Shown: piece by piece, positions 1,283 to 42,240 of the stretch
Position numbering within the stretch: the first letter of the stretch is position 1
Layout of the letters: each line of letters starts with the position of its first letter
Source: Sphagnum compactum
Lineage: Eukaryota
Reading direction: 5' to 3'
Assembly: GCA_965153455.1 (NCBI GenBank)
Contig: OZ234493.1
Span: forward strand, 12,204,213-12,268,212
DNA: 64,000 nucleotides
Notes under the pieces: generated by a model
Databases searched by the model: none
What the model was told of the DNA's origin: nothing
Seen by the model: the letters and a program-made list of their open reading frames with translations, nothing else
Position numbers and translations under genes: made by a program

Positions 1283-3947
1283 ATGTCAGCCGACAACCAG
1301 AAGGGCTTGGCCCTGGCTGTGAGCTCCAGTCTCTTCATCGGTGCCAGTTTCATTATCAAGAAGAAAGGCCTCAAGCGCGCAGGTGCTACAGGCGTTAGGG
1401 CAGGTATGAATTCCTCTGTTAGTGTCAGTTAATCTTCCTTCTTCCTTTGGGTACCCAAGCTGAGATGAACAAATTAGGGTCTGAGCTGGGATGAGAAGAT
1501 TAGGGTTGAGGAAAAGGCAGTAGGACACATACACACACATATGCGTGCACACACACACACACACACATACACAAAAGATCGTGGTGTGTTTTATGGAGAT
1601 TTGGAGGTTTTTAGGGTTTGAATACAGAAAGGATGGAATGGCAGTGCTTTGTGGAATGAGAAAGGTTGGGGACATTGATCAGAGGTGGTGGGGCTGATGA
1701 TGATGATGATGATGGGAGATGGGGCTATCAGGAGTTGGTGGATATTCATACCTTTACGAACCACTATGGTGGGCAGGCATGATCACCAGTAAGCTTCTTC
1801 TCGTACTGTGGATGTATGTGATCAATTTTGTGAGGTGGAATTCTTTTTTGTTGGTTTTTTGTGCAATCTGTATTTTGGGTGGGGTGGTGCTGATGATGGG
1901 GGGAATTTGGGATGGGCAGTGCTTGTAGGCGAGGTGGCCAACTTTACTGCTTATGCATTTGCTCCTGCTGTTCTGGTTACACCTCTTGGTGCATTGAGCA
2001 TCATTGTGAGGTATGTAGGAATTTTCAGATCTGCCCATGAGTGTGTACTATCTTCTGTTGTACCTGGCTTGGGTTCATGAAGAGAGAGAGAGAGAGAGAG
2101 AGAGATTTTTAACTGGGGGCATATGTGTGGGGTGGAGTGCAAAATGCAGTGCAGCATTGGCACATGTTGTTCTCAAGGAGCGGTTGCATACACTAGGTAT
2201 TGTAGGCTGTGTGCTCTGCATCGTCGGTTCAACCACCATTGTGCTTCATGCACCAAAAGAGCAAACCATTGACTCTGTAGAAAAAGTTTGGGGTCTTGCC
2301 ACTGAACCTGGTGTGTGGTCCCCCCCCCCCCAAACCCCCCCTTTCTCTTTAAGTAGAGGCTGTTTGTTATACAGAGTACTATGGGATGCAAGCTACAGAG
2401 CATGCACAGATGTATGGTTGCATGTATTTGAGGCCTTGGAGGAACTTGCCAGATACATGTGCAATCCATCATTTGATGTTTGACCCAAGGTAGGTTTTTG
2501 ATGGAACAGTGGGTGTTGGTTTTGTGGGGTTTTGGAACAGCCTTTTTGTTATACACAACTGCAGTAGTTGCAGTGGTGTTACTTCTCATTTTCTATTACG
2601 TGCCACAGTGTGGCCATACACATGTGCTGGTCTACATTGCCATCTGCTCCCTCATGGGCTCTCTATCGGTACCTATTCTTTTTGTCCCAATGATCACCCC
2701 CTTAAGATTGCCCACAGTAATTTTCTTCCGTGGTGGCAATTCTCATTACTTTGTATGCCACTGCTTCCTCCTTCCTTCTCATCATTGAGATCTACCTCCT
2801 TGCTTTCTGCAACCTTTTCACTCCTGCTCACCAACTGTTACAGGGCAACTGATTGTGGTGTGATATGATATGCCAAGGTGATGAGCGTTAAAGCACTGGG
2901 GATTGCACTGAAGCTCACTTTCCAGGGGCAGAATCAATTGATTTACCCACAGACATCGGTGTTTGCTATGGTTGTCGTCACCTGTGTTTTAACACAGATG
3001 AACTATTTAAACAAGGTATCTCTCCCATCTTTTCTGTGCTTTTTTTGTACAGCCCCTGAGACATATTAAAAGGGTTTGTTCAGTACAATCTCATGGTGCC
3101 TCTGCAAATAGTGCAGCAATTCCAAGTCTTCACAGCATTGCTAGGTTTTTTACCCATAGTCAATCTGCCTCTTCTTCTTTTTTGTCTCATTGCATTGGAA
3201 TGTTTTGAGCAAGTATGTTTCTTCAAAAGCTTGCAGTTGCAAATTGGGGCTTGTGCTTGATGTAGGCTCTGGACACATTCAATACAGCAGTGGTTTCACC
3301 CATCTATTATGTGATGTTTACATCACTTACAATTCTTGCCAGTGCCATTATGTTCAAGGTTTGGAACAGTGCGACCATCACAGTTGCTTTCAGTCTTGAT
3401 GGGTACCATTTCAAAATTCTGAAAATCAAATTTTTACTTTCACTATTGTTTTTTTTTAAAATTAAGTAGAGCACAATTGCAATCTCTTGTATGTTCAATG
3501 CAGGACTGGGACCAGCAGAGTGCAGCAGAAATAATAACAGAGCTCTGTGGATTTGTTACCATTTTATCCGGCACATTTTTGCTCCATGCAACAAAGGACA
3601 TGGGTGACTCCTCATCAAACATGGGTTCGCTCTATTCACCTTTTACACCCAACTTTCGTGCTGTTTCTTGGATTTTCAGGACTCTACAATAGTCCATTGC
3701 AATTGCAGTCTCTTTTGTATCTGTATGGAAGAACAGTTACTGAATGAAGTCTGCTAGATCTCGTGACTATCTTGTGCATTCCTGATGAAGTGAATCTGTT
3801 TGAATTCATGTAGGCATATATGGTGGTCTACCGATTACAACCATGTCCCATCGCTTATCGATGGCGGGGCATGTCAAGCGGCCAGAGGACACAATGGAGA
3901 ATGAAGAAATTCCTCTTCGGCGAACAGACTCCATTCGAACACCATGA
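1283..3947 (+). CDS. NIPA: NIPA-family magnesium transporter, 9 exons: 1283-1403, 1732-1788, 1920-2010, 2150-2310, 2541-2668, 2878-3015, 3266-3358, 3504-3624, 3814-3947
   Basis: GT-AG splicing gives a continuous [110 protein letters not shown]. These are the characteristic plant NIPA (Mg_trans_NIPA) motifs. An in-frame TAG lies just upstream at 1268-1270. Confidence 0.96.
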
Positions 3948-5453: not shown

Positions 5454-8303
5454 ATGGAAGGTCTTGTGCGAGAAACTGGGGACAAAAGAGCGGAGGAGGA
5501 TAGGAAGTTTTCAGCTGTGGTATTGTACCACTATCCGTGTCCAGATGGTGCTTTTGCAGCATTGGCAGCACATCTTTATCACTCCGCACTCCGATGTTCT
5601 CCCCCACTATTTCTTCCCAATACTGTCTATAGTCCCTTAAGGTAATGATGTAATCCTAGGATTTTTGTCCCTCATTTTCTTTTTTGTGTTTGTGGAATTC
5701 ATCGCTCCTTTTTGTTTCATGCAAATATTAGTCGCTCGTTTGATTTGTTATCTAATTTTTCCTCATTTTTTCTGTATGAAAAATGTCCCTCATTTTGTTG
5801 CATAAAATCGTCCCCTCTTTTGCTTTATGTAATTTGTCCTTCATTTTGTTTCTATCTGTTTCTTGGCTGGGAGCTTGCAGTTTTGGTATTAGGATTAGGG
5901 TTTAATAGGGCATTTTTGCTTTGTTTTTCACCTTAGCTTTTACATGAATCATGTTTGTTTCTAATGCTTGTATATTGCTGCGAATTTTTTGTCTGTTGAG
6001 TATTCTTCCTTATTAGTGTATAGAGCTGTTGAAAAGTCTGGTGGATTGGAAGTGTCGGTTTTCTGCATTTTCTGAATCTGTTCCTTTTTGACAGGGTTGA
6101 AGAACTGGTGACAGAAGGTGTTGATGTCTTTTATCTTTTGGATTTTGTTGGTCCTAAGGATTTTGCAGTTAAGCTTTCCCACAAGGCAAGATGGTATGTA
6201 TTTCTTTTTCTTGTTTTGAGTCCCTCCTGCTGGTATTTTGTGAACTTGTAGTTGGCACAAGAGAAACCCTAAACCATATATCATCATGGACCAATATCAG
6301 ACTAAGCCCAAGCAAGCTTCACTAGGAGGGAAAATTAGGGTTTAGACTTGCATTAGGTAATGAATAACGTGTCTCAACAAATTCAGGAGAATCTTCTGGT
6401 AATCTAAAGTCAATCAAAATGTCTTGGATCTAGAGTAATGATTAAGGCTGGGACTTGCATTCTGTGCGGCATTTTTAGGTTTTGTGTACTATATGGGTTT
6501 GGTTTTCAGAGTGTCACAGTACACTTTCCACAGTGTCTCTTATTATAGCCATTTCCTGTGGGCGCCCATCACCTTTTTTGTTTCAGAGGATACCATGAAC
6601 TCACATTGACATACATTAGACTAGCAGGAGCAGTTTATCTTTTGGCAGCACAAATATACCCTGGGAGGAAGCCATTATAACTGAAGGTTGAGAAGCAGCA
6701 TCAGCTGACCTTTTGGCAGTCAATGGGATGTCTGTGATACAGGGTTGTAGTTTTGGACCATCACAAAACTGCCCTTGAGATGCTTCCAGATGGAGGAGAC
6801 TGTCCACCGAATCTTGAAATTGTTCTGGATATGAAGAGATCTGGAGCAACTATAGCTTATGATTATTTTACTGAGAAGCTCCAAGAAGCCACCAATGACG
6901 CTGCAAGTGTAAATGAACAAGCAGAGGCTGTGCAGGGCCGCCAAAGCCTATTCAAAGTTGGTGGACACAAAGCAAAAGGCCTTGTAACAGATCAGAAGGA
7001 CATTGAGAGAGTGGAAACACTTTTTAGGTACATTGAGGATGCAGATTTATGGCATTGGGCTCTTCCAGATAGCAAAGCATTTAGCAGTGGCCTAATAGAC
7101 ACTCACATCGAATTCAGCACTGCAGTGAACCCATCAGTCTTCAATGAGGTGCCTAAAACTAGCCAATTAGGGTAGATGAAATATATGGCATTTCCACACA
7201 TAAGTATACTGTTTTTTATGAGTCAGGTAGTTACCTTTTTAGTCTATTGAATTCTTGTTATCCTACTAATGAGCTTTAATTGTCAATCTTGCAGCTCACC
7301 ACCCCACCCTCAATCTTCCTCTTAAAATGTCTGAAATTGACATGAACATGCATAAGTTGGATTCTTTTATTGATCATGCAGCTTTTGGCTTTGGATCCTG
7401 CTGCGGTGATAGAAATTGGAAGAAGCAGCCTATCAAAACAGCAAACACTAATAGATCAGGCACTTCAATCATCATTTCAAGTACAGCTTGGGCAAGGAAA
7501 ATTTGGGCAGTGTTTGGTAAGTGTTCACCTCTGCAAGTTTATTCACTAGTGCTCTCTTAGTGTTGCCTAATAACTATGTATACCTTCATCTAGAATGTTA
7601 GTGCTTACAACTTCAAAACTTACTGTCACATTTTTAGACACTGGCATTAATATGCTTTGGAAAACCATTTTGTATGGCCTATGGACCTGAGAATAGTGAT
7701 GACCAGCACACCTTGACTCTTTCAGCCAAGATTTCTAATCATTTTTTGCTGGGGACATGTTGAAACATGGATTTAAGGGAGTATTAGCAGATACAACAAT
7801 TGAGCTCAGGAGTGAGCTTGGCAACCAACTAGCAGCAAAGAGCCTTTCAGTAGGCTTAAGGTGAGTATAGATACCTTGAGGAAATTGCTCTTGCAATGGT
7901 CCAGTTTATGGTACATGACCTAGCGAGAACATGGGTAGTGCCAAATAGCAGATTAGGGCATTCATTGTTCTTGGTGCAGGCCAATAGGAGCAGTAGTGTA
8001 TGTGGAACCAGCTTTGAATGATGCAAGCCAATATAAGATCAGCTTGCGCAGCATTGGTCCTGAAGATGATACTACACAAATATCCAAGGTTGGACATCTT
8101 GATGTCTTTTCCCATCTTCATGTTCCCATCACTTGTAAGGTCTCTTCTTTTTGTTTATGATATTTTTCTGAGTTTATTGGTTGGGTGTCGTTTCTTTGTT
8201 CTTATGTCCTTTGATTTGGGTCCAGGCATATGGAGGTGGAGGCCATTGCAATGCAAGCTCATTCTTAATAAGCAAGAAGGAGTTTGAACAATGGAGGACT
8301 TGA
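5454..8303 (+). CDS. DHH/DHHA1-family phosphoesterase (uncharacterised plant family), 7 exons: 5454-5641, 6095-6193, 6743-7148, 7382-7516, 7778-7860, 7980-8088, 8226-8303; alternative in-frame ATG at 5436
   Basis: The spliced ORF carries the DHH superfamily motifs in order: VVLYHYPCPDGAFAAL, FYLLDF, VVVLDHHKTA, YIEDADLW, ISLRS, YGGGGHCNASSF. All junctions are GT-AG with consistent phase. Confidence 0.92.
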
Positions 8304-9636
8304 ACTCTAGCAGAGCCCCAGTATGGATGGAACTAGAAGAGACATGAGGGTTATTCAGTACTGTGATGAACTTATCAACGATATTTGCTTGTTGGTGACG
8401 ATTTATTATCTTGTAGAGAAAGATCTTTTGAATACCCATGATATGAAACAGAGGTCAAGAGTGGAACTGACAGGACCATTACCAAATTCAGCTGGCATGC
8501 CCTTTGAATTTTATCTTTCTGTAGCAACACTGCAGGTCCAAATTTTCCATCATCAGGACAATATGTACTGACAAATTAATGGTTAAAGTTAGATATCTGA
8601 TCAGAGACTGGTGATGAGGCCTTACATATCTTGATGCAACAGCAATTTGGGCTAGTTTTTGTAACTCTTGGCATCAAAGGTATTTGCTTTTGGTTTTTTT
8701 ATTAATGGTTTCCCCCCATTATGAAACTTTTTTTCATCCAAAACTTGCATTCCAAGATCTTTGGTTCACATCCCAGTAGTCAGGACTTGAAAATATGATT
8801 GCAAGTTAATCCTTGGCCACATTTCATAAGTCCCAAAAATGGTGTCAATCCATTAGACCACATATGACACCTAGAAGAGATATGTGAAGGAATTATGTCT
8901 ACTATTCACTGGGATGAACTTCAATCATGAAGATCATAATCCATGAACCAACAGTCATTTTTGTACTTCAAGAAGCAAGCATGAATCTTTTGTCATTGTA
9001 ATTTATAACATTGACCGAGACCTCAAGTATTATTTTGCAAGATCAAGGTCTAAATCAACATCATCTTACAACAATTGGAATAAATGTGCTATTTACTTCA
9101 AAGACTGGATTTCATTAACATTTGCACTTATCCAAAATTTCTGTGGGCTTGCATTAGTGTGGTAGTAGCATTGGGAACGTTTCAAATTATCAGGCAGTGT
9201 GATAAGACTCATTGGATGCAGAAGATTCATCAGTTTTTGAAAGGGAGTAAGCTTCTGTGATATTCATTGTTTGTTTAGGGTTTCTTTACACCTGAAAGTT
9301 GATAGTCTACATGGGTTTTGAATTGCATTCATTGTCATGTTACCTTCTTGAAATTATGTCAATTAGTCTCTGCAATTGGTTAGAGTTTGAATTCTTCAAT
9401 CTCTGTAATTGAAGTGTGCTCATTGTTTGTTTGACAGAGCTAGAGAGGAAGGAAGGGAGAGAGCTTTGAGAGTTTTAGGGTTGGTTGTTGCTAGGTTTGT
9501 CCTTGCAATTTTCTCAAGAGGGTTTTGCCATGTTTTGCTTGAGGAAGGTTCATGATGTGAAAAAATTGTTGGTGTGTGGAATTGTTCAAGAAATATTCCA
9601 TATCCGATGGCAAACATGGGTTACATATTACTTATG

Positions 9637-9951
9637 TGGCCATTTGTGCATTCCAGCGCTTTCTTGCTTGTTCCAATTATAGTAAAGAAGGCTGTTTTAA
9701 TGATAAGATCAAAATGGTTGGACATCATAATGTCAATAAGTCTTTCAGTATAGTAGTAGCAGCTCCTCACGTTGATGAGGGATGAAAAACAGAAGATTCA
9801 ACCATCAATGGAGAAAGCCCCGTGAGCTGCTACTACTATACTGAAAGATTTATTGACATTATCATGTCCAACCATTTTGATCTTATCGTTAAAACAGCCT
9901 TCTTTACTCTATCGAAACAAGCAAGAAAGCGCTGGAATGCACAAATGACCA
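9637..9951. ncRNA. Long inverted repeat (~130-bp stem, ~49-nt loop); candidate hairpin RNA / MIRNA precursor
   Basis: Arm 9637-9771 is the near-perfect reverse complement of arm 9821-9951, with a few mismatches and small bulges. The hairpin is seen directly; its expression is inferred. Confidence 0.55.
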
Positions 9952-12139
9952 TTCAGCAATGGAGTTCTAAAGCTTCCCTCGTTGTTCATGTTTCTTATGT
10001 TATGGACACCATTTCAAGTTCAATATTCAGATTAACATTTGGTGGCGACTGCAAAAGGTATTACCTTAGTTGTGTAGGAGCTGGCTTGGAGGATGTAGAA
10101 TGATCTCACAGAATCAACATCACATGGGAATCCATGTAACAATTTCCATAGTCGTCAAGGTTGTCGGGTTGATGCTATGCAAAAAAATGACCTCCTCAAA
10201 ATTCTTATGTCCAACCCAAATGTGAAAACTATAAATTTGTAAAAATTGTAACTGGATTATACTTTGTATATACAAATTTGACATGAAAAAGTTGATTATG
10301 TTGTGTAAATAAATACATATGTGCAATTTTTTAAATTCAAAAAATTATGCTGTAATTTTTGAATGATTTGTAATCGGATTTTATGATTGCGATTATGATA
10401 ATAAAAAATTTGTTTCTATATTTTGAATAAATGTGGATCATGATAAGATAATATAGTAAATAGGTGTAACAATGTGATTGGCAATTGCATAAAACAAATA
10501 TTCCAAAGGTATTCTAAAGCTAATTAGAGAATTTAAAAGACTACAAGTAAAATGAATTCTTTCTTTTGATAGGTAAACTTCTTTTTTTTTGTTTTAAGGT
10601 TTTCTAGAATTAACTATGGATATATAGGAAAGAAATATATTTGTATTAACAACAACTTTGTTCATGATTGTTATTTCAATGTAGAGATTGAGTATTTAAA
10701 CATTTTGATCAAAATTTGGATTGGGTCTATACATGTATTAATTAACTGATGCTACTACAAATTTCAAGGTGCAAAACAAATATTTGAACATCATATAGAA
10801 CTTGTTGGAAAATCCAAAGGTCGTGGGAAACATAAAAACATTGTACTTTTATTATTTTTTGTTGAAAATTTACATATATGTGTATGACATAAGAAACAAG
10901 AGAAATGAGGTAGAAGTTTTAACTAGATTGTAGGAAATGTGCAATAAAATCTATGACGTAATGAACATATTAAAACATATTTATTTTAGGAGAGTAGTTT
11001 TTTGTTGTGCTTTTTAGGATTGGAGAATCCTTTTTCCTTTGTTCATTTTTATGATGGATCATGTTTTTTTCCCTCTTATAAAAAATGAAAGATTTGAAAA
11101 TGAAACTTCTAAACCCTTTATTTTTGAAATTACAAAGCATTTATTATTATTATTATTTTAAGTAAAAACTTTGTGAAATTTTTTTAAGGGTTTTCAAATA
11201 ATTTTAATGAAATAAAAGTGTGTAAATAATCTTCTTCTTTTTTAAATGCGGTTTAAACAAAAAGTTTATGATCAAGTTTGATTGTGACAAATGGAATGTT
11301 GTCAACCTTATATTGTATTTGGAATGCTTTAAATGAATCATATGATAAGTAGATTGATTATTTTACAAATATGTTTCGAAATATGAAGTGTTGTGGAATA
11401 TGTGAAAAAGTTAAGTTGAACCATCAACATAAACATTTTAGAAAGATGAACAATGTATATAGTAAACCAAAATGATTTTGAATGTGGGTGCATTCGTATG
11501 GCATTACTAATTGTTTATTATCTAGTCATACAGCTAATACAAGAAATGTATTTTTGTTTGAAATGCTATGTTAAACATCAAGTTCCAACGCATGCTAAAA
11601 AAAAGAAAAACCAATCACATGTTTATATGTGTGCAATTCTATTAAAACATTCATTTTGCATCCAATTATTGTCCTTTGTAAACATTGGGTTGCATATACA
11701 AAATTGAAATTGGGGTTTTAGCATAGGTTACATTATGAATACTAATTTATTGAATAGTCATTTTTTAAGTTGGAATATATTCTAGACAACCAAATATCTA
11801 GAAAAAATCTTTCAAAAAATATTCAACCTATTTTATTTACAAAATATGGAATATATCAACAATATAAAACTCTTTTTGAAAAATCAACTAATAATGAAAG
11901 CATGCATATTTTGTCTTCAAATGCTGTAAATGACTCAACAAGCACAACATTTCTAATGATGGTTTTGAAACTATGCATGTTACTAAAAAAAATACAAAAT
12001 TTATCACTTTTATTTGTTATGTGTACTAATTCACAACTTCCTAGATATAATGGAAATTTTAGAATAAGATCACAGTACAATAATACATTTCATGAACAAC
12101 TTATAATTCAATATAATGGATTACAAAATATTGTTGCAA

Positions 12140-13250
12140 ACAAAACTTGATAACTCAATTTTTTTCCATTTTTTCACATGGACATGGTGCTTATGATGAT
12201 AAATATCAATACATGAATATTTAAAATTTTGCATGAGTTTATTATTTTCATTTTTTACAATATATAAACCATATTTATTAATTCAATTGATTGAATAAAA
12301 ATCTTATACTTGTTTAGAAAATAACATTAAAAACGCAAAACAAAAAAATTCAAACATGATTAATGTACAAATTTTTCAACATGTACTAAAATAAAAACTT
12401 TTGTCATCAATTCAAGGTTCTCCTAAGTAGTTTAAATCACAATTACCAAAATTTATTAACTATGGTAAAGGAATCTAGCATGCTTCATATTTTTTAAACT
12501 TTGACTATAGATGAAACGACATCATCAAGGTGGAATGAATTTAACGACATGGAAAACATTGTAAAAAAAATACATTTTATCATGGAAAGATTGTCTTGTG
12601 GAAATGTGCAACATTGTTTCATTTTTGTCTTGATATGTTTATGCATTTAGAGATATATTAAATGATAATGATATTTTGGGTAAAGTAAAAGAATATGTTA
12701 TTTGTTATGAATTGCAACATCGTGGATTTGTTCATGCTCGTATCATATTATGGATTCATGAAATGATTTGCAAAGAATAACAAATGAAATAGTAGTTGTT
12801 ATTCTTATTGTGTATAATGAGAAAATTCCAAATTTTATTCCTCTAAGTTTACAACTTAATTTTTTCAAATTGGTGTTACAAAAAAAAATTCATGAATATT
12901 AAAATCAATGTATTCAAAAAGGTTGAAATGGAATTGTAGGTTTAGGTTTCCATATCTTCCACATTATATTGAATCTAATTTTTTCTAAATAAAAAATAGA
13001 TGGGAATATTATAGACCACAATATGAAGATCAAAATGTTGTATCATATCATAGGACATTATTATTATTGTGAGGTGTTCATTTTAACATTTTATATATCA
13101 CATGTTCTTATTGATCATTTTTTTTTAAAAAAATGTGCCATGAAATATGAACGACATGGAATATTAAATTAAAATACAAATGATGTAGAACAATTAGGTT
13201 TACAAAATGCATCAAAAATTACAACTACAATTAATCTTTATTTCAATATC
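12140..13250 (+). mobile_element. Degenerate Helitron Rep (HUH endonuclease) remnant; AT-rich Helitron-like sequence probably extends back to ~10200
   Basis: Frameshifted translation shows the Helitron motifs in order: FP..F.HGHG (~12160), QGSPK..LLTMVK...FxTLT (~12410-12510), DILGKVKEYVICYELQHRGFVHARIILWIH (12670-12760; EFQxRGxxHxH motif), CRFRFP (~12935) and YYRP..DQNVVSYH..LLL.GVHFN (~13005-13090). Confidence 0.85.
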
Positions 13251-22959: not shown

Positions 22960-23608
22960 ACCTATTTATATAGCTTAAGCCTATCTACTTTTCAACCGAC
23001 TTACATACCTAAGTAAACCTAGCTACCTAGTAGGGTTTAATAATTACCTATCTACCTAGGCACCATATGTCAACATCTTATTAACCTTAAATTGGATGAC
23101 TTAAATTTTATTAATTAATATATATATATATTTTAAATGTGGGCTTTAATTACCACGTGTCACCATATAATTGGTGTTTAAAAATGAACTCGTGTCAAAT
23201 GGTCAATGAATGTTCCATGGTGTGCCACATGTCATCATTTAAGTGGCATAAACTCTAATGATTGAATTAATCAAATGAATTTTTAATTAAAAATACACAA
23301 TAATAATTTTTAAAAATGACATGTGTCCAAATGCAAGTTGTTCAATTTTTTAAATGTGTCATACTTTGATTAGTTACACTGTAGTTGCAAAGAGAGTTGC
23401 ACATAAGGTGCAACTACATTTGGATTGATATGTATGGATGAACATGTATATTAACACCATATATACATGTTGCATACATAGTGTTGCATGCAACTAAATG
23501 TCATATGTAACTTGTTTTATGTAACTACTCGAATTTGTAGTTACATGTGTCACATGTAACTGAATTTTAGTTGTAAACGATAGTTACAAAACCCAAAAAA
23601 TTTAGTAG
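22960..23608 (-). mobile_element. Truncated terminal fragment of CACTA family B (inverted copy of ~39790-40435)
   Basis: Its reverse complement aligns with the left ~650 bp of the element at 39790. It ends ...AAAACCCAAAAAATTTAGTAG, a clipped CACTACTA terminus. Confidence 0.8.
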
Positions 23609-25541
23609 GCCTCCAAGTGAGTGGGGACCAGTTGATACGGATAGTGAAATTGGTCCACTAATATCTAATGAAATACAAATTTATTAAGCCATTTCAGTTG
23701 CTAGTTAATTAACTAGGCAACATGGAAATCAACTAAATTTAAATTATTTAATATTATTGATGATTTCATGATTTTCAGTTTATGAATTATTGACACGTGT
23801 CATTACATAAGCTAAGTTAAAAACCTAGCCTAAGTATATAGGCCATGTGACCAACCTAAATAAGCATTTACTTTTTAGGAATTACATAGGAAAATATTCG
23901 GTCAACTTACCACTATTGGCCACAAACACACCATTTGCGGGGTTTGATTATTTGACCTCTAGGATGGAAGCAAACACCCTTACCATCAAGCTACCACACT
24001 TGTTGTGATAATGTGTTACATTGCATTCTATTTATCAAATATTTCATTTTAAACATTACAAAAACATAAACTTTGAAAATTCATATCTTATTGAGATTTT
24101 GTCCAAATGAAATGATTGAAATTTAATCTTTTTTTTCAATAATGTACATAATTACATTTATTTCTTTTTAAAAGTTTAAAATCATTTGAACAAATGTTTT
24201 TTGAATATCATTATTCAATAACATTTTAATGACCATTCTTTTGAAAAAGAAAATGTTTAATAAATGGATAAATTTTTTCCTAATATAATAATATTACCTA
24301 GGTTATGCTACTTTAAGCTATTTTAGGGTTACTTTTCATTATTCTAAGTTATTTCACCCTACGTTATTTATGGCTATTTTTAGTTATTTCACCTTAGGTT
24401 ACTTTCGGTTATTCTAAATTACTTTTAGTTTTTTTATGTTATTTTTGAGTATTTTAGGCTATTTCACCTTAGGCTATTTTTTACTATTATAATTTTTTTT
24501 GCTATTATATGTTTTTTGGGCTATTGTATAATATTTCATTTTAGGTTATTTGCGACTATTATAAATTATTTTTGGTTATTCCAAGTTCTTTCATTTTAAG
24601 CTATTTTCAACTATGTGAGGTTATTATTGATTATTTTTTGCTATTGAAGGTTATTTCACCTTATGTTATTATTGGTTATTCTAGGTTATATTAACATAAG
24701 TTATTTATGGTTATTCTATTGGTGGCTATTGGTAGCTATTCTAGTGGTGGCAATTAATGCCTATTTTATTAATGGTTATTGGTAACTATTTTATTGTGGC
24801 TATTAATGTTTATTTTATTAATGCTATTAATGGAATTATTTATTAATGATTATTGGTGGTTATTTTAAGTTAAATTATCATAAGCTATTGGTGGCTATTT
24901 TTTGTTATTTAAAACTATATTATGACTATTGGTGGTTATATTATCATAGGCTACTGGTAGTTATTTTATTGTAGGTTATTCTAAATTATTTTTCATAGGT
25001 TATTGTTAGTTATTTTATCTTAGGTCATTATATTATATTTTAGATTATTTTAAGTTGTTATACTAAGATAAAATAACATAAAGTATAATGATCTTGAATA
25101 ACCTAAAATATAGCCTAAGGTTAGTTGATTAGTTTAATTTAAAATAACTTAAAAATAAAAAACCTATAATAAACTAGGTGAGATACCTTAAAGTAAAATA
25201 ACTTATAATACTTTAGGGTATAATAATTTATAATAACCTATAATAATTTATAATAACTTAGGGTATAAATTAAAATAACTTAAAATAACTTAAAATAATG
25301 TAGGGTATATCATAAAATAACATAGGGTATTTAAAACAACAATATAAATAAACATATTTACCAGAGTAAATTATAGTAATGAATTATGTTAACTAATAGT
25401 GAAACATGATGTTTACATAGTGATATTATAGTGAAATAACTTTAACTGGGGTGAAATCATTAAAATGCAGTGAACTTATTTCACTTTTAAAGCCCCATAA
25501 TGATTTAGGTTAGTGAACTACGCCCCACTTTTGTAATATTG
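23609..25541 (+). mobile_element. Non-autonomous CACTA family A, copy 1 (5'-truncated, short internal repeat)
   Basis: Collinear with 26390-31356. Its right end CGCCCCACTTTTGTAATATTG is a decayed version of CACCCCACCTTTGTAGTAGTG. Confidence 0.8.
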
Positions 25542-26301
25542 TATGCGATGAAAAATCCCCCATTTGGTGTAGAAAATTCAAATTCAAATAATTTCAAGAT
25601 TTTATCACATTAGATTATATAACAATCACATACATGAGTCCATTTTCATCAAATTTAATAACAATTTAATGTAGGACACTCTCTAATCCATAAAGGTGTT
25701 TAAAAAAATGGACTTGTGACACCAAAAATGATCTAATTTAGCTTGCTAATACCTTTTTGTCTAGGTTTATGTTTTTTTAATTTGTTGAATTTTTTCCACC
25801 ATTGATTTTTTCAACTGCTTTTCTTTTTCTTAATTAGTAGCACTCTTTACTTTCCTTGGTTCTTTATCCTTGAACACTTATTCTTTAGTTACTTTACTTT
25901 TTGTGATAACATTAACATCCACTACATTCACATCTGCAGTGATTATTCGTGTCTTAGCAATAGGTTGAACCTCTATTACTACCATAGATTTCCCATAAAA
26001 CATCTTTTGCATCTCAACAAACTTTGGACAATCTGTTAATTATGTCCATTCAAACCACAGATGTGGCATGCATATGAAAATGTCTTATGTGGTTTCTGAT
26101 TTGGTTGTGTTGCTTCTATGGTTGCCACCATGGTCTGTTATTTTTTCTTTTTGCATGTCCCACATTGTGATTTGCCATCCCGTTTATGCAATGTTTATCA
26201 ATCTTCCTTGTATTTTTATGTGTTTTCATTAGTGTTGCCTGTTTGGTAGTCTGTGGTACTGAAAGTGCACTCCTTGCTTCTGCAGTAGTCTTGTCTTCTT
26301 C

Positions 26302-29300
26302 GACTACAAAATGTGTCGTAATTCACTTTGGGTTTCATTAAACTTTGAGTGAATTTGGACATTTTTACCTGGTGAAATTATTTAACCCCCTAGTGAGTAG
26401 GGACTAGTAGCTATGGACAATGAATTGTTTCATTAGTACCTAGTGAAACAGCGTTACTCTTAAGTGAAATACAAATTTACCAAGCCATTCACTTATTAGT
26501 TAATTAACTAACCAGCACGGAAATCAATTAAAATTTAATTATTTAATATATAATATTATTGATAATTTCATGATTTTTAGCTTATGATTTATTGACACGT
26601 GTCACTACCTAAGTTAGGTTAAAAACCTAACCTATGTAGGTAGACCATGTAATTAACCTAGGCACCTATTCTAAGAATTAAATAGTAGAATATTCTGTGA
26701 ACATACCATTGTTGACCACACAACACCATTCATGAAGTTTGATCCCTTAACCTTTGGATTGGAAGCAAGCACTTTCACCATCATGCCACCCCACTTGTTG
26801 TGATAATATGATACATTACATTCTATTTGTCAAATACTTCATTTTAAACATTACAAAAACATAAACTTTGAAAATTCATATCTTATTGAGATTTTGTTCA
26901 AATGAAATGATTCAAGTTTTTTTTTTTTTTAATTCAATAATGTACATAATCACATTTATTTCCTTTTGAAAGTTTAAAATCATTTGAACAAAAAAAAGTT
27001 GAATATCAATATTCAATAACATTTCAATCACCATTCTTTTGAAAAAAAATAATTTAATAAATGGATAAGATTTTTGTTAATATAATAATATTACCTATGC
27101 TAAGTTACTTTTAATTATTTTATGACTATTTTTCATTAATTTAAATTATTTCACCCTACATTATTTATGGTTATTTATGGCTATTTTCAATTACTTTTGG
27201 TTATTTTTTGCTATTTCAACCTAAGCTACTTTGGTTATTCTAAATGGTTTTTGGCTATTCTAGCTTATTTCACCTTAGGCTACTTTCGGCTATTGTAATT
27301 TTTTTGGGCTATTCTATGTTATTTTTTGCTATTATGAATTATTTCAATTTAGGCCATTTATAACTATTATAAGATGTTTTTGGCTATTCTAAATTATTTC
27401 ATTTTAAGCTATTTTCGACTATGTGAGGCTATTATTGGTAACATTTGGCTATTGAAGGTTATTTCACCTTATGTTATTATTGGCAATTCTAGGTTATTAT
27501 TAGCTATTTCACCTTAAGTTACTTTTATCTATTATAAATTATTTCACCTTAGATTTTTTTGGCCATTTTAAGTAATTTTAGTATATGGCTATTGGTTGTT
27601 CTTTTATCGGGGCTATTGGTGGTTATTAATGGTTATTTTATTGGTGGCTATTAATGCCCATTAATGGTTATTCTATTAATGGTTATTGGTGGCCTATTCT
27701 AGTAATGGCCATTAGTAATTATGTATTAGTGGTTATTGATGGCTATTGGTGGTTATTTTATTGATGGTTATTGGTGGTTATTTTATTGTTGGCTAATCTA
27801 TTAATGGCTATTGATGGTTATTTTATTGATGGTTATTGGTGGTTATTTTATTGTTGGCTAATCTATTAATGGCTATTGATGGTTATTTTATTGATGGTTA
27901 TTGGTGGTTATTTTATTGTTGGCTAATCTATTAATGGCTATTGATGGTTATTTTATTGATGGTTATTGGTGGTTATTTTATTGCTGGCTAATCTATTAAT
28001 GGCTATTGATGGTTATTTTATTGATGGTCATTGGTGGTTATTTTATTGCTGGCTAATCTATTAATGACTATTGATGGTTATTTTATTGATGGTTATTGGT
28101 GGTTATTTTATTGCTGGCTAATCTATTAATGACTATTGGTGGTTATTTTATTGATGGTTATTCATGGTTATTATATTGGTGGCTAATCTATTAATGGCTA
28201 TTGGTGGTTATTTTATTGATGGTTATTGATGGTTATTATATTGGTGGCTAATCTATTAATGGCTATTGGTGGTTATTTTATTGATGGTTATTCATGGTTA
28301 TTATATTGGTGGCTAATCTATTAATGGCTATTGGTGGTTATTTTATTGATGGTTATTCATGGTTATTATATTGGTGGTTAATCTATTAATGGCTATTGGT
28401 GGTTATTTTATTGATGATTATTGGTGGTTATTCTATTAATGGTTATTGATGGTTATTTTATTAATGATTTGGTGGCTATTCTATTAATGGCTATTGGTGG
28501 CTATTTTATTGATGGTTATTGGTGGTTATTCTATTAATGGTTATTGATGGTTATTTTATTAATGATTTGGTGACTATTCTATTAATGGCTATTGGTGGCT
28601 ATTTTATTGATGGTTATTGGTGGTTATTCTATTAATGGTTATTGATGGTTATTTTATTAATGATTTGGTGGCTATTCTATTAATGGCTATTGGTGACTAT
28701 TATATTAATGGCTATTGGTGGCTATTCTATTAATGACTATTGGTGGCTATTCTATGAATGACTATTGGTGGCTATTTTATCAATGGCTATTAGTGGCTAT
28801 TCTATTAATGACTATTGGTGGCTATTCTATCAATGACTATTAGTGGTTATTTTATTAATGACTATTAGTGGTTATTCTATTAATGGTTATTGGTGGTTAT
28901 TTTATTAATGGTTATTGGTGGTTATTTTATTAATGGTTATTGGTGGTTATTTTATTAATGATTTGGTGGCTATTCTATTAATGGCTATTGGTGACTATTA
29001 TATTAATGGCTATTAGTGGCTATTCTATTAATGACTATTGGTGGCTATTCTATGAATGACTATTGGTGGTTATTTTATCAATGGCTATTAGTGGCTATTC
29101 TATTAATGACTATTGGTGGCTATTCTATCAATGACTATTAGTGGTTATTTTATTAATGACTATTAGTGGCTATTCTATTAATGGTTATTGGTGGTTATTT
29201 TATTAATGGTTTGGTGGCTATTCTATTAATGGTTATTGGTGGTTATTTTATTAATGGCTATTGGTGGCTATTTTATTAGTAGCTATTGGTGGCTATTTTA

Positions 29301-31356
29301 TTAATGGCTATTGGTGGCTATTTTATTAATGGCTATTAATAGTTATTCTATTCATGGCTATTGGTGGCTATTCTATTAATGGTTATTTTATTAGTGGATA
29401 TTGTGCTTATTAATGGTTATTATATTAATGGCTATTAGTGGCTATTCTATTAATGGTTATTGGTGATTATTTTATTAATGGTTTGGTGGCTATTCTATTA
29501 ATGGTTATTGGTGATTATTTTATTAATGGTTTGGTGGCTATTCTATTAATGGTTATTGGTGATTATTTTATTAATAGCTATTGGTGGCTATTTTATTAAT
29601 GGCTATTAGTGGCTATTATATTTATGGTTATTGGTGGCATTCTATTAATGGCTATTTTTTTGGTGGATATTGGTGCTTATTAATGGTTATTATATTAGTG
29701 GCTTTTAGTGGCTATTATATTAGTGGGAATTAATGGTTATTATATTAGTGGCTATTAGTGGCTATTATATTAGTGGGAATTAGTGGTTATTATATCAGTG
29801 ATTATTAGTGGTTATTCTATTAATGGTTATTGGTGGTTATTCTATTAATGGTTATTAGTAGTTATTCTATTAGTGGCTATTGAGTGTTATTTTATTATGG
29901 CTATTGGTGGCTATTCTATTAATGGCTATTAGTAGTTATTTTATTGGTGGTTATTGGTTGTTATTATATTTTATTAATGGCTATTGGTTGTTATTATATT
30001 CTATTAATGGTTATTGGTTGTTAATATACTAATGGCTATTGGTGGCTATTCTATTAATGATTATTGATGGTTATTCTTTTAATGGTTATTGATGGATATT
30101 CTATTGGTGGATATGGTGCTTATTAATGGCTATTATATTAGTGGTTATTGGTGGCTATTGGTGGCTATTCTATTGGTGGATATTGGTGCTTATTAATGGC
30201 CATTATATTAGTGGCTATTGGTGGCTATTCTATTGGTTAATATTAGTGGTTATCAATTATTATTATATTAATGGTTATTAATGGGTATTATATTAATGGC
30301 TATTGCTGGATATTTTGTTAGTGGATGTTGGTGGTTATTAATGGTTATTATGTTAATGGCTATTGGTGAATATTCTATTAGTGGATATTGGTGTTTATTA
30401 ATGGCTATTATATTAGTGGCTATTGGTGAATATTCTATTGGTGGATATTGGTGGTTGTTAATGGCTATTGGTGGATATTTTAGTGGTGGATATTGGTGGC
30501 TATTTTATTAATGGCTATTGGTGGTTATTCCATTGTATGCCATTGGTGGTTATTTTATTGGTGGCTATTGATGGCTATTAGTGGCTATTTTATTCATGGT
30601 TATTAGTGGTTATTGTATTATAAGTTATTGTCGGTTTATGTTATATTACGACTATTGGTGATTATTGTATGATAAATTATTGTTGGATATTCTATGTTAT
30701 AATATCATAGGCTCTTGGTAGTTATTATATATTGTAGGATATTTAAAATTATTTTTTATAGGTTATTATTTTCTGTTGTAAGTTATTTTACCTTGAATCA
30801 TTATATTTTATTTTAGATTATTTTAAGTTATTATACTTAGGATGAAATAATTTATAATAACATAAAGTAGAATGACCTTGAATAACTTAAAATATAACTT
30901 GAAATAACATATATTAATTTTAAATAAAATAACCTAAGGTATAGCCTAAAGTTAGTTGAATAATTTAATTTAGAATAACTTAAAACTTATAATAAACTAG
31001 TTAAGGTACCTTAAAGTAAACTAACGTATAATAGTTTAAGATACAATAATTTATAATAGCTTATAATAACATATGATATAAGTTAGAGTAACTAAAATAA
31101 CTTAAAATAATATAGGATATATCATAAAGTAACATATAAAAAATATTTAAAAAAACATAGAAATGAACCTATTTACTACATTAAATTATAATAGTGAATT
31201 ATGTTAACTAGTAATGAAACATGATGTTTACATAGTGATATTATAGTGAAATAACTTTCACTAGGGTGTAATTAGTAAAATGCAATGAAGTTATTTCACT
31301 TTTAAGGTAGCATAATGATTTAGGCTAATAAATTACACCCCACCTTTGTAGTAGTG
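26302..31356 (+). mobile_element. Non-autonomous CACTA (En/Spm) family A, copy 2, ~5.05 kb with 3-bp TSD TTC
   Basis: The right end ...TTTGTAGTAGTG is CACTACTACAAA on the minus strand. The left end GACTACAAAA is CACTA with one substitution. TTC occurs at 26299-26301 and 31357-31359, and removing the element restores the gag reading M-L-C-E-E-D-K. Confidence 0.85.
27590..30620 (+). repeat. ~3-kb tandem satellite of ~25-bp units (GGYTATTGGTGGYTATTYTATTAAT) with higher-order repeats
   Basis: Ten copies of a 65-bp unit (27741-28390), three copies of a 98-bp unit (28391-28684), and a duplicated block starting at 28685 and again at 28983. Confidence 0.97.
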
Positions 31357-34300
31357 TTCACACAACATTGTTGCCTATTTATGTTGTTGTAGTGTTCATT
31401 GTTTCATCTTTATAATCGCAATTGTGAAGTATGATTACAAACCCATTCTAAACACAGTAATTAGAAAATTATTTGTGGTTAGGACTTGTAAACCATGAAC
31501 CAACTTCTGAATATGTTCATAATAAACCTCCACCCTCTCAGTCTCCTCATGCTTCATATTCTTCAACTCCATGTATATTTGCTCGTCATTTGAATTTTTC
31601 GATGACGTTTGCAAAATGCTTGTGTAAGTTTCGAAAAAATACAGTCATGGAATTCTGACATGTAATTGTGACATTAATCTAATGTTGCATCTTTTAGTGT
31701 ATAACTAAATGCATTGATGATATATTCTTTAAAAGTTTATGTATTTACTTTTACTGCAGAATTAAACATTTTGACATGAGCATCTGGATCGACATCTTTT
31801 TTGAAATTAGGATACTTAAAAACTACCTTGTTTGGCATAACTTAATGGCCATCTTTGTGATTAAAAATTGGTGCAATTATAGGATATGGTTTTCGATATC
31901 CTCCTAGTGGGTTTGCTACATTTGCACTTCTGTACCCTCCAACAACCATTAAGTTCATCGGTGGTTGATTTGTAATCCTATTCACATGAGTAGTCATTAT
32001 CAAATTAGTAAACACCATATGAGGTGTACCAACAACTCTAGTAGTTGTTGTTGGTAATGCCGAACTCCCATTCAATTTCCTTATTGCCAAGACTCCACCT
32101 GATCCACTACCCAATTTTGTTGCAGATCCAATTAATATTCCCCTTCTGACAACATCCATGGTGGGCACAACAACCGTTTCGACTCATGTGGTTGTTATAC
32201 TCGCATCAAGTGATTGAGTAACTATACTCCAACAGGTTGTCTCCAGGTTTCAACAACTATTGCTTCTAACATGATTGGTGAAGTTGTGTTGACTTGAGGG
32301 CGACAATGTTCCATTATGTGGTTACCCATTAGTATCCTCTGTGGTGCAAAATGTGGGTGTGAATACACCTTTGGTTTTTTGCTCTTAGTACAAATAGATG
32401 GACAAATCTGTCAACAATGTGGTCCCAATTAGCTTCCCAACTCCATGCCTCTCAATTTGTTCTGAACTACAGGAATTCTTGGTTCATGTTCTTGTGGTTG
32501 ATCCATTAATTTTCTTGCCACATTTTGTAACTACACATGTTTAACGATACCTATTTTGATTTGAAAATTCACAAAAGGACAATCCATGATTGCATGTCCT
32601 TCATAGAATGCTGCCAATGTCAATATTTTAATGTTCTTAAAGCTCTTAGCACCACCAACAATCATTTTAGGTTCATAAACAATAAATTCCCACAACTAAA
32701 AACCTTTAACACCAACATCTCTATGGCCAACTATGGTAACCTTCATTGTTGTTATGGGGGAAGACGATGCCTTTGTTGAATGCATTCTAGAACTAGCAAT
32801 GAAGGGAACCAAAGCTTGAAACCTACTAAAAGACATTTTATATTGTAGTACAATCCAAAAAGGTTTGGAGCAAAGTACTTCAAATAATTAAAATCATGCA
32901 CATGATCCTAAAGAAGGGGTTTCAGTAATAAAAAGGTAAGTGCATATGGCTCTAGTGATGGCAAAACATTTAAAAAGGTCTGCAAATGTTTTGAAAGGCC
33001 TTCTTCACTCTGGTGAAAAGTCCACAATATTTGTTTAATCAAACACTTTGAAAAACTAATTTTGATATATCTCCGAGATCTTAGCTTTGCAAAATGAGTG
33101 ATTTGCAACGATTTGTCATGGCAATTCTTTCTTGTCAATGTATTATATAAAAAGAAAAAAATTGCATAAAAAGAAGGTTGTAGCAATTCAAGTGGTTCAT
33201 CCATATACTTAACTGAATCTTGACCACTTAAAGACAACCAAAATAAGAAGAAACATTCACATGACCAATGAATGCAAGATTTTAGAAAGTGGTGTTCTTA
33301 TTTGCTTGACAACAATTAAATTCTTCAACATGTGTCAATGCAAGGCCCAATCCAATCTACTCAAATAGGGATAACCTGAGCGTTTTAGAAAAGTGTTTCA
33401 AACACCTTTTTCCATTGGCAACATCATCAAAAGAATTTTTTTTTGATAAGGTTTCTAGATTTTTTTGACACATTCTTGAAATGTTAAAAAAAAACATCTA
33501 TTTACCATCTACCAATGCCCTTGTTACAATGGAGGAATGTGCTTATGGAAAAGAAAAAATCCACCTCCCCCTTTTTCTAAGTCTTCTTGTAAAAACACTT
33601 AGAGATGCTTCTTTCCAACGTCAGCTCTATGCTTTGACCACAATGTTTTTACAATTGGAACATGCTTTTCACTTGGTAGATGCTATTGCTTCTTATTCCC
33701 AAAAATGGCATTAAAATTATTGTCACCGCACTATTGTTGTTGTTGATATTTCTGAGGTGAGTTGCAAGCATGAGGAAGAGACCTATGTTGAAGTGGTAAT
33801 TGGGTTGATGTATTATTGGGTCCCTTTCACTAGCACTAAATTATGCACCTTGGTCAAGATATTGCACCAACTAAAATTTGAACCATTTAAGTGATCATTT
33901 GCCATCAATCTTAAAATGAATTGCCTAGTGCAATCTTTTTGTTTTTTTGTGTTAAACATTCATGAGGATGATAGGTGGTAAGTGGCATATGCCTCGTACA
34001 CTAAGCTGGGAATTTTTTACTATTGATGGGGTGTTTTTATTGTGCCATGAGAATTAACATGCACTACTCATTAGATGCGCATGCAACATGGCTTTGTTAT
34101 CGCTTGCTTTTGATGTGCCAAAGAGAAAAAGAAAAGAAAGCATTGCCAAGGATCATTGCTGCCAAACCAACAAAACAAGAAAAAAAACTTGAAGAAGAAT
34201 CGGTCAAAGAGAAGTATCTGAAGATGAAGAAACAACTTTTGCAATGGAATACAAAACAATGGGAGAAGCTAGAGGAGAGCAAAAACTTACTTAGTATCCA

Positions 34301-35306: not shown

Positions 35307-35493
35307 CATGAGGTAAACTTTGTGGTTTCATCCATTACAATGTAAAATACATGGTGTTCAGTGTGGCACATTAAACTTAAATTAATGTAGTGTAACATAT
35401 GCCATGAATTAATGTCAAACTGTTATATGCACCACAATAAACACCACATATATTTTACATTGCAACGGATGAAACCACAAAGTTCACCTCATG
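35307..35493. mobile_element. Small foldback element/MITE (~187 bp) with ~60-bp terminal inverted repeats
   Basis: CATGAGGTAAACTTTGTGGTTTCATCCATTACAATGTAAAATA.. is mirrored by ..TATTTTACATTGCAACGGATGAAACCACAAAGTTCACCTCATG. Confidence 0.8.
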
Positions 35494-39789: not shown

Positions 39790-42240
39790 CACTACTAGAA
39801 ATTTTGGGTTTTGCAATTGTCATTTGCAACTAAAATTCAATCCATGCGACACATGCAACTGCAAATTTGTGTAGTTGCCTCAGACAAGTTGCACATGACA
39901 TTCAATTGCATGTGACACTACGTATGCAACATGTATATATGTTGTTAATATACATGCTCATCCATACATACTAATCCAAGTGTAATTGCACCTTATATGC
40001 AACTCTCCTTACAACTACAATGTAGCTAATAAAAATATGACATGTGTTTAAAAATTGAACAACTAGCTTATGGACATGTGTCATTATTTAATTATTTTTG
40101 TATTTTTAAAATTAAAAATTCATTGGATTAATCTCAATCATTAAAGTTTCTACCACTAATATGATGACACGTGGCACACCATGGAACCTTCATTGACCAT
40201 TTGACACGTGTCATTTTTAAACACCAATTATATGATGACATGTGACAATTAAGGCCCATCTATTTTTAATTTAAAAATATTAATTAATGAAATTTAAGTC
40301 GTCAAATTCATGGTTAATAAGATGTTCACAGGTGTTACCTAGGTAGGTAAGTACTTATTAAACCTTATAAGGTAAGTAGGTTTATTTAAGTATGTAAGTA
40401 GGTTGAACACACCTAAGTTTAAGCTATATAGGTAAAATTAAAATAATCCGATTTTATTTTTAAGATTAACCATTTCATAAAGGTCAAGTTTTATTTATTT
40501 ACTCATCCCCAATGGCACTTGGTGTTTTGTTATTTCAAAGATATTACTTCTACTTATATACTGAATTAAATAGAATTGGAAGCCAAAAGATATGGGATAA
40601 AAAATTTCATTGCAAACTTCATGAACCAACTCAGTTGCACATTATATGCAACTAATGTATTAGAGTATAACAGCCAGGGATGGTTTTGTTGCTTCTGGTG
40701 TCCAAACAAAACTTGAAGCCCTCCTTTTGGCGCATCTAACCCACTAAGAATCATCGAAAACAGATTAGAAATGAGAAAGTTATGGCCCTCCAAAGTAAAA
40801 GGGGTAAAAAACTTAGAAAAAAACCATTGAACACTATAAGGCCAATTTTTAAACACCCATAAAGTTCCTTTTATGTTTTTTTTTGCTATTAAACTTCCAT
40901 CATGATTTGTAGAACTTCAGATGGCGCTCCTATAGCATTCTAAATCATTTAAAATGAATAAGAAATAAGAAAGTTATGAAGTTTGAAAATAGGAGCGGTC
41001 CAAAAAAATAAAATAAAATTGTTTTGTAACTTGGAAATTTATTTTTCTTCTTGTTAATTTCTCATTACTCCTTTTCTTTTGCACTTCAAAGATGATTGTA
41101 GAATATTTTTAATAATTATGATTACTTAATGAAAATATGGTTTTAACATTATTATATAGTTTAAACTAGTAATTAGTTTAAGATGTTTGTGTACTTGTAG
41201 GTTAATTCGTGTAGCCTATTTACATTAATATTTAAACATAAATAATAAAATTTAAATATATAATACCTATTGATATTATATATATATTGATTATCATTAT
41301 AATCATAATAACATTTAATTGATAATTATGAATATTCATTATAAATTTAATATTATCATATTAATTGATATTGAATAATGTTTTTGTTTAATCAAATTTA
41401 CATTTTCTGAAAAAGATTCCAAATAAAATAAAATAAAAAAGTTTTACTTACCAAAACAAATATTTAAATATATTTGACAAATAAAATTTAAAAACTTACA
41501 ATATATATTTAAACCATGGTTTAGTTTAGCTTAATTTAATTTAATATAATTTAGTTTAACCATAATTAATTTAGCCATAATTGGTTTGGTTTAACTGAAT
41601 TTAGCCATATTTATTTTAGCCATAATTAATATAGTTTAATTTATTTTAACCATAAATAATTTATCCTAACTTAATTTAACCATAATTAGTTTAGTTTAAT
41701 AAATTTAGCCATGGTTAGTTTTAACTTAATTTAATTTAGCCATAAATATTTTAGCCAAATAAATTTAGCCATAAATATTTTAGCCAAATAAATTTAGCCA
41801 TGGTTAATTTTAACCATAATTATTTTAGCCTAACTTAGTTTAATTATGGTTAATTTAGCCTAATTTAATTTAGCCATGGTTAGTTTAACTTTTTAGTTTA
41901 TTTAACCTAAGTTAGTTTAGCCATGGTTATTTTAGCTTAGCTTAGCTTAACCTAAGTTCACATGGGGTTAACCTTAATATTAGAGGCACATGATATTATC
42001 ATACATAGCCTATGTAGATATATTAAATATAATAATTTAAGTACGTATAAGTTTAGGCCATCATTTTTATGACACGTGTCCATGTTATACACATTTAGTT
42101 GCACACACAATCATATGGCTAAAAATTTATACAAATACCAAATTTACAGTTGCAAACATGACCAAGATAATTGCAAACGATAACCAGTTGCATGCTAGTT
42201 GCATAGTGATTGGTTGCAAATGACAGGATTTTTAGTAGTG
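39790..42240 (+). mobile_element. Non-autonomous CACTA family B, full length (~2.45 kb)
   Basis: Terminal inverted repeats CACTACTAGAAA... / ...TTTTTAGTAGTG. The flanks TCG (39787-39789) and TTG (42241-42243) read as a 3-bp TSD with one CpG-type transition. Subterminal GCAACT/AGTTGC repeats. Confidence 0.85.
41515..41960 (+). repeat. Internal degenerate tandem array of 5-mer modules (TTAGC/CATAA/TTAAT/TTAGT) in CACTA family B
   Basis: TTTAGCCATAA / TTTAACCATAA units recur with ~20-bp spacing. Confidence 0.8.

Follow-up and report, generated by a model that had tools for sequence, protein, structure and literature searches.

A long hairpin in Sphagnum compactum probably formed by inversion of one copy of an older tandem duplication

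How does a long and nearly perfect hairpin come to lie downstream of a plant gene, and does it serve as a source of small RNAs? The question is raised by positions 9637-9951 of a stretch of 64,000 nucleotides of the Sphagnum compactum genome (contig OZ234493.1), referred to here as the window. The original prediction, made from the letters of the window, described this hairpin as a candidate long hairpin RNA, young MIRNA or siRNA-generating locus. Our analysis favors a different reading, to which we assign a probability of about 0.72: a lineage-specific inverted repeat that arose in two steps and is most likely a silent, unselected scar of an inversion.

The near-perfect long hairpin is real. 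Local alignment of 9637-9765 with 9951-9824 gave 129 columns, of which seven are mismatched, with a single 1-nt bulge near 9677, and the stem continues to 9771/9821 over a 3-nt bulge, which bears out the roughly seven mismatches and the two bulges that had been described. Five of the seven mismatches form G:U pairs, two on the + strand and three on the - strand, the same counts as before; those at 9680/9909 and 9726/9863 are unpaired on either strand. Folding, which had been proposed as a check, gave a strongly stable structure for 9620-9970 on both strands, with a minimum free energy of -217.3 kcal/mol on the + strand (z -24.98) and -221.5 kcal/mol on the - strand (z -28.95), and in neither case was any of 100 shuffled sequences as good. 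The folding potential that plant MIRNA rules look for in a stem-loop is present on both strands (z about -25 and -29). The TTGATG (9772-9777) and CATCAA (9803-9808) noted in the loop are both there, although a 6-bp match of this kind is no more than chance gives.

A 22-nt pattern common to both arms retrieved five loci from public metagenome contigs (L011-L015). All five are orthologous and syntenic with the window, the upstream gene included, with about 95% identity over that gene, 92-94% downstream, and collinearity on both sides. Two types can be distinguished among them, L011/L014 and L012/L013/L015, and L015 differs from L012 by 1.1%. At each of the five loci the sequences that form the arms occur as direct tandem copies, each about 141 bp long and repeated at a period of 151-152 (141-bp direct repeats with a period of 151 in L012), and window 9637-9809 matches all five in reverse orientation (95.4-97.1%) between collinear flanks. 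The L012 stretch corresponding to the hairpin does not fold into one (z +1.68, with 93 of 100 shuffles as good). The origin by inverted duplication that had been proposed is thus contradicted, as the arms are direct tandem copies at five of five orthologous loci and an inversion of 173 bp came later. The elements of the locus, read against these relatives, are as follows.

9635 to 9637, no strand: left breakpoint, where the window lacks 600 bp of the L012 type (L012, L013, L015) or 216 bp of the L011 type (L011, L014) and has one extra base at 9636.
9637 to 9809, - strand: inverted segment of 173 bp, made up of tandem copy 1 and 44 bp of its upstream flank, reversed relative to the relatives.
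9637 to 9765, - strand: arm 1, the reverse complement of tandem copy 1, with the copy-1 alleles at 9640 and 9740 as in all five loci.
9766 to 9809, - strand: 5' part of the loop, the inverted upstream flank of copy 1, identical at 44 of 44 positions to L012 3809-3766 and to L015, reversed.
9806 to 9813, + strand: orphan 3' end of copy 1 (CAATGGAG), outside the inversion and a direct repeat with 9957-9964 in the junction alignment.
9806 to 9809: 4-nt microhomology at the right breakpoint, within the orphan 8-mer.
9814 to 9823, + strand: spacer between the old tandem copies, in a stretch collinear with the relatives from 9806 onward.
9824 to 9951, + strand: arm 2, tandem copy 2, which has kept its original orientation; the old repeat unit as a whole reaches 9964.

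A query of 605 bp covering the lost segment had no candidate in the own genome and is also absent from the window. Its 58-aa frame gave two weak matches (E 0.033 and 0.39) without DNA similarity and was rejected as a lead. L011 lacks about 380 nt inside the same segment.

Sequencing runs were examined as well, three from relatives (X1, X2 and X7) and one from the same species (X9); X3-X6 (word share 0.04) and X8 (0.23, from the sample of X7) were left out. The tandem junction, which in window coordinates joins 9637 to 9806 on opposite strands, was seen in two of the three relative runs (X1 and X7), and loose contig ends in X7 correspond to both ends of the missing segment. In X2, one contig links the upstream flank, a single copy and the 3' flank; this contig may represent a collapsed tandem or a single-copy allele.

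The direction of change can be read from three features. Arm 1 matches copy 1 and arm 2 matches copy 2 at 9640/9948 and 9740/9849 in all five loci. The old repeat unit extends 13 bp beyond the arm, and the final 8 of these bases are retained at 9806-9813, identical to 9957-9964; in the alignment, only a tandem ancestor explains this orphan 8-mer. Over 3036 columns, the distances are 3.23% between the window and L012, 3.92% between the window and L011, and 3.82% between L011 and L012. Since the window is nearer to L012 than either is to L011, the tandem state would stand on both sides of the root under a clock, a rooting by distance with a small margin (0.6 points) and no true outgroup. From the copy-1 and copy-2 alleles in the arms, the orphan 8-mer and the nested distances, we strongly infer that the hairpin is the derived state, nested among its relatives.

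The opposite order, in which the hairpin is older and the relatives gained the tandem through inversion and insertion, draws on the fact that the root was placed by distances and not by a rooted outgroup. It would require that 216-600 bp of sequence not found in the own genome had been inserted, and that this had happened in lineages on either side of the clock root. Furthermore, it leaves the orphan 8-mer unexplained, and the direct repeat of the relatives extends 13 bp beyond the end of the arm. We consider an older hairpin highly improbable.

The 8-nt direct repeat formed by 9806-9813 and 9957-9964, which the first reading of the letters had overlooked, also bears on the possibility of a foldback MITE or other transposon remnant. 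The repeat lies around 9814-9956, and 8 nt is the size of target duplication made by hAT elements. However, it brackets one arm rather than the hairpin and marks where the old tandem unit ended; it is left over from the tandem arrangement and is not a target site duplication. In agreement with what had been reported, the junctions of the hairpin carry no duplicated target. When the own genome (702 contigs, 382 Mb) was searched with the DNA queries 9630-9960, 9820-10220 and 8700-9640, a check that had been proposed for the arms, the locus itself was the one candidate for each. In contrast, a dispersed control repeat from elsewhere in the window returned 164 candidates, and 39 of the 40 that were scored were other copies at 86-91% identity, so that sensitivity is demonstrated to about 86% identity and copies below about 85% could escape. 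At the identity level of the control, the hairpin is single-copy in both DNA and protein searches, and the many dispersed copies expected of a MITE were not seen. Additionally, the relatives have no inverted termini here; they carry both arms in tandem together with extra DNA, and no empty site. Compared with foldback MITEs and MITE-derived MIRNAs (PMC9641971, PMC10004981), the locus is similar in being a short self-complementary element near a gene, but differs in being single-copy, in having no target site duplication around the hairpin and in having relatives that lack inverted termini. A transposon origin is exceedingly improbable, and the description of a lineage-specific hairpin that is not a MITE holds, given its single copy in the own genome and the absence of the stem at five of five orthologous loci.

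The original prediction had recognized no conserved miRNA in the stem. Consistent with this, no Rfam 15 family reached its gathering score in the window, and the best of seven sub-threshold matches was MIR837 with 40.3 bits against a required 117. MIR396 was considered for the outer stem (9649-9672 and 9916-9939), which is similar over about 16 nt, and was rejected at 26.5 against 80 bits. The miR396-like sequence is found in both tandem copies of the relatives, where it has no star strand, and the resemblance is probably due to chance.

Taken together, the comparisons suggest two steps. In the first, a non-coding stretch of about 141 bp, 1.3 kb downstream of the gene, was duplicated in direct tandem before the split from the relatives, and the copies drifted about 5% apart; the five loci show that this duplication predates the split. 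In the second, one event in the lineage of the window would have replaced the interval from 9636 to just past copy 1 by its own last 173 bp in reverse-complemented form, with 216-600 bp lost on the left, 5 bp lost on the right and rejoining at a 4-nt microhomology. Alignment across both breakpoints shows such a rearrangement, combining inversion and deletion. Because copy 1 had a direct twin alongside, its inversion would have formed a 129-bp imperfect stem at once.

With regard to mechanism, the right breakpoint has the microhomology at 9806-9809 and the loss of 5 bp, and the left breakpoint has either one extra base or a 2-nt microhomology with a 2-nt slip. In L012 coordinates, the switch points fall in the order 1-3-2-4 (point 1 at 3165, point 3 at 3766, point 2 at 3937 and point 4 at 3943). 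The geometry is that of a '1-3-2-4' inter-strand template switch, and break repair by end joining fits equally, since the right junction has 4 nt of microhomology and the left one 0-2 nt. In the relatives, the end of copy 1 (L012 3925-3945) holds a perfect 14-bp palindrome that contains the inversion breakpoint, and this palindrome could have favored either the switch or the break.

In the portion of Loytynoja and Goldman 2017 (PMC5453318) consulted, type '1-3-2-4' of the four-point model only inverts a fragment, 'creates no repeat' and accounts for 45% of 794 human-chimp events. The event proposed here is similar in that copying would leave at 9635, take a downstream fragment backwards and return just past it. 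It differs in that a pre-existing direct twin turns a plain inversion into a 129-bp stem, and in that the 173-bp fragment and the loss of 216-600 bp are larger than the short clusters treated in that portion. Similarly, the excerpted text of PMC10710096 traces the stem of hsa-mir-4713, an annotated miRNA gene, to a single copying event of 28 bases. Both cases would have a single replication-type event creating the hairpin of a lineage; here, in contrast, the arms are older paralogs, the stem was imperfect from birth and the locus is known from DNA only. Our literature search, which placed most subscription papers outside its scope, found no paper on a hairpin born when one of two tandem copies is inverted. 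How novel the route is may depend in part on Fig. S1 of PMC5453318 and on the PMC10710096 data sets. The route is simple geometry and hence hardly a new kind of event.

It is important to consider that the inversion could have been made in assembly, with the species really in the tandem state. The inverted junctions occur in no read or contig of the four runs, the inverted state being known from the assembly alone, and the tandem form is seen in all five loci as well as in the contigs from X1 and X7. On the other hand, the inversion is a clean 173 bp coupled to the loss of a segment unmatched in the own genome, and its 4-nt microhomology is like that of a repair or replication event. Furthermore, the same-species run had zero depth here and is hence uninformative on the junctions, and the set of metagenome loci may exclude records of the own genome. 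An assembly artefact is therefore very unlikely.

Under the two-step origin, the mismatches of the stem take on a different meaning. The tandem copies of the relatives differ at 8/124 (L011), 7/129 (L012) and 6/129 (L015) sites, and the arms of the window at 7/128. Since the copies in the relatives are already diverged to about the same degree, the mismatches do not date the hairpin. At least two of the seven mismatches and the 3-nt bulge are inherited from the tandem state, and the mismatch at 9726 probably is too, since the X7 and X2 contigs show a single difference (9770) over that part. The base at 9915 occurs in relatives as well. Four changes in the window are absent from the five loci, those at 9888, 9909 and 9913 and the additional nucleotide at 9677. 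All of them disrupt or weaken pairing, and no compensating change accompanies any of them.

The arms differ from the orthologous copies at 11/256 (L011), 10/256 (L012) and 11/256 (L015) sites, and the flanks differ from their orthologs at 42/1158, 44/1140 and 46/1170 sites, respectively, which amounts to 3.9-4.3% for the arms versus 3.6-3.9% for the flanks. Arm 1 alone is lower (2-5/128) and arm 2 higher (6-9/128). Comparison with L011, L012 and L015 revealed no extra conservation of the arms and no compensatory change. Pair-breaking changes appear to accrue at about the neutral rate and give no sign of selection; such a sign could not, however, be expected of a very young hairpin.

A classic young MIRNA, derived from inverted duplication of its target gene, would account for the stem length and near-perfect pairing, both of which suit proto-MIR loci. 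However, the duplication was direct, not inverted, and neither DNA nor two reading frames led to a parent: three DNA and two protein queries against the own genome gave self matches only, at a sensitivity of about 86% identity, below which a distant parent is possible. The 105-codon frame over arm 2 was rejected as a sign of coding origin on the basis of 0-1 silent versus 11-14 replacement differences; a true exon examined for comparison had 6-7 silent versus 5-7 replacement differences. The 105-aa product had no Pfam family at E<=1, no Atlas match and a low recognition value, and its matches in the own genome were the two arms only. Frame +1, which has the most silent differences, is stop-rich and returned only itself from the own genome. 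Viral Pfam families appeared at E 0.045 and 0.059, failed the cut-offs and were treated as chance. One outer-stem 24-mer, searched with up to 3 mismatches, had one off-locus match, with 3 mismatches and similarity that ends by 28 nt; this match is at chance level (0.16 expected). Descent from a target gene by inverted duplication is scarcely credible.

Whether the stem is transcribed was assessed with reference to two features upstream of it.

5454 to 8303, + strand: upstream protein-coding gene, multi-exon and expressed, with exon limits set partly by eye.
9430 to 9560, no strand: GA-rich stretch, with a poly(A) depth of 0 in X9 and one 159-nt contig of depth 4 in the RNA library of a relative.

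Searches with three exon pieces of the upstream gene found no convincing Pfam or NCBIfam family; the motifs of the gene at 5454-8303 resemble those of a DHH-type phosphoesterase, which it may encode. Run X9 carries the same species label and is poly(A)-selected and stranded; about 12% of its data were read, and 105 of the 109 reads placed were at least 99% alike to the window. A GT..AG intron joint of the upstream gene (8086-8224) is spanned in 25 reads, and the final exons and the 3' UTR of this + strand gene have a depth of 22-33 (about 25-fold). The poly(A) mRNA fades at about 8700-8810, which is 830-930 bp before the hairpin. Depth is 0.06 at 8708-8808 and then 0 from 8809 to 10900, GA-rich stretch and hairpin included, and none of the 109 reads lies beyond about 8810 in the portion of X9 that was read. 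The GA-rich stretch is present as described and contains one TTAGGG, but its likeness to a Pol II 5' region finds no support in the same-species poly(A) depth of 0. In the RNA libraries of the relatives (X1 and X2), contigs of depth 2-4 occur between 8709 and 9978 and none at 10021-10900, and X1 has a depth of about 60 on the upstream gene versus 2-4 past it. These low-depth contigs may reflect weak read-through; they are strandless, possibly DNA, and come from runs picked for containing 9300-10300 and from organisms apparently without the hairpin.

The same two-step origin could also have given rise to a nascent locus of the hairpin-RNA or proto-MIR kind that has no parent gene, in which read-through or a weak promoter of its own transcribes the stem and dicing yields 21-24-nt RNAs. 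If transcribed, a stem of 129 bp whose z is about -25 to -29 would be a good substrate for a Dicer-like enzyme; it lies less than 1 kb past an expressed 3' end, and low-depth contigs cover the region in the RNA libraries of relatives. Poly(A) libraries can miss hairpin RNA that is rapidly diced or not polyadenylated. Against a transcribed locus stand the same-species poly(A) reads, none of which passes about 8810, the arms that show neither extra conservation nor compensatory change, and the chance-level off-locus match of the one 24-mer tested. We regard a transcribed and diced stem as unlikely. The expressed small-RNA locus of the original prediction is so far unsupported, with 0/109 poly(A) reads past about 8810, no conservation, and no parent or convincing target; lack of transcript coverage, which had been named as evidence against it, was found for poly(A) RNA only.

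In the excerpts of PMC2582634, the inverted-duplication model starts with a founder target gene's perfect inverted duplication, and IR loci of Arabidopsis are processed by several DCLs. The hairpin shares with plant proto-MIR and IR loci a long, near-perfect and lineage-specific fold-back potential, but lacks two features that define this model, as its duplication was direct rather than inverted and no founder gene was found; the evidence for it is genomic DNA. By analogy, it could work like a proto-MIR or IR locus if transcribed. Plant MIRNA criteria include rules on duplex overhang and excision precision. In the consulted part of PMC7111516, the distinction between MIRNA and nearMIRNA rests on a sequenced miRNA together with the complementary strand of its duplex, of 20-24 nt. 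MIRNA membership cannot be claimed for the hairpin. We found no small-RNA survey of Sphagnum by title in the literature search.

We conclude that the hairpin is probably without function. Double-stranded RNA would come from the stem only if read-through or another promoter crosses it, and the hairpin is most likely at most raw material for a hairpin RNA. It is a rather doubtful proposition that a hairpin-RNA gene has been caught at birth here, with a tandem duplication and one microinversion followed by low read-through from the upstream gene and dicing. Were it true, the close relatives would hold the exact 'before' state, the arm mismatches would not date the hairpin, and a proto-MIR would need neither a parent gene nor a transposon.

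On the preferred reading, the locus reflects a local rearrangement of an ordinary sort whose traces are unusually clear. The locus holds a practical lesson for hairpin hunting, namely that a long, single-copy, G:U-rich stem can arise in one step from an older tandem duplicate. Mismatches and bulges in the stem are then uninformative on the age of the hairpin or on selection for pairing. Should small RNAs turn up, this species would offer, together with its tandem-state relatives, a natural before-and-after pair for the origin of a small-RNA locus.

The region around the hairpin turns over through local duplications and deletions. L012, L013 and L015 have a tandem duplicate of their own, of about 102 nt (L012 5136-5358; window 10996-12226), and near that position they lack about 1.1 kb that the window carries. 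Elsewhere in the window, a second, smaller hairpin at 35307-35493 has 47-bp arms that are 91% complementary around a 93-nt loop. Another gene, at about 1800-2800, is membrane-transporter-like by eye. The stretch 24300-31400 holds AT-rich tandem arrays, whose periods are 10, 25 and 65 nt, with strong G and T skew at 27.6-30.8 kb; direct duplications of about 2.8 kb and 5.8 kb overlap them, and a 15-nt tandem array lies at 41500-41950. The stretches 22991-23556 and 39792-40407 are copies in opposite orientation, about 81-86% alike and 16 kb apart. Since a 211-bp part of this pair proved to be a member of a dispersed family (164 candidates in the own genome), the two copies may be separate insertions rather than the ends of one element.
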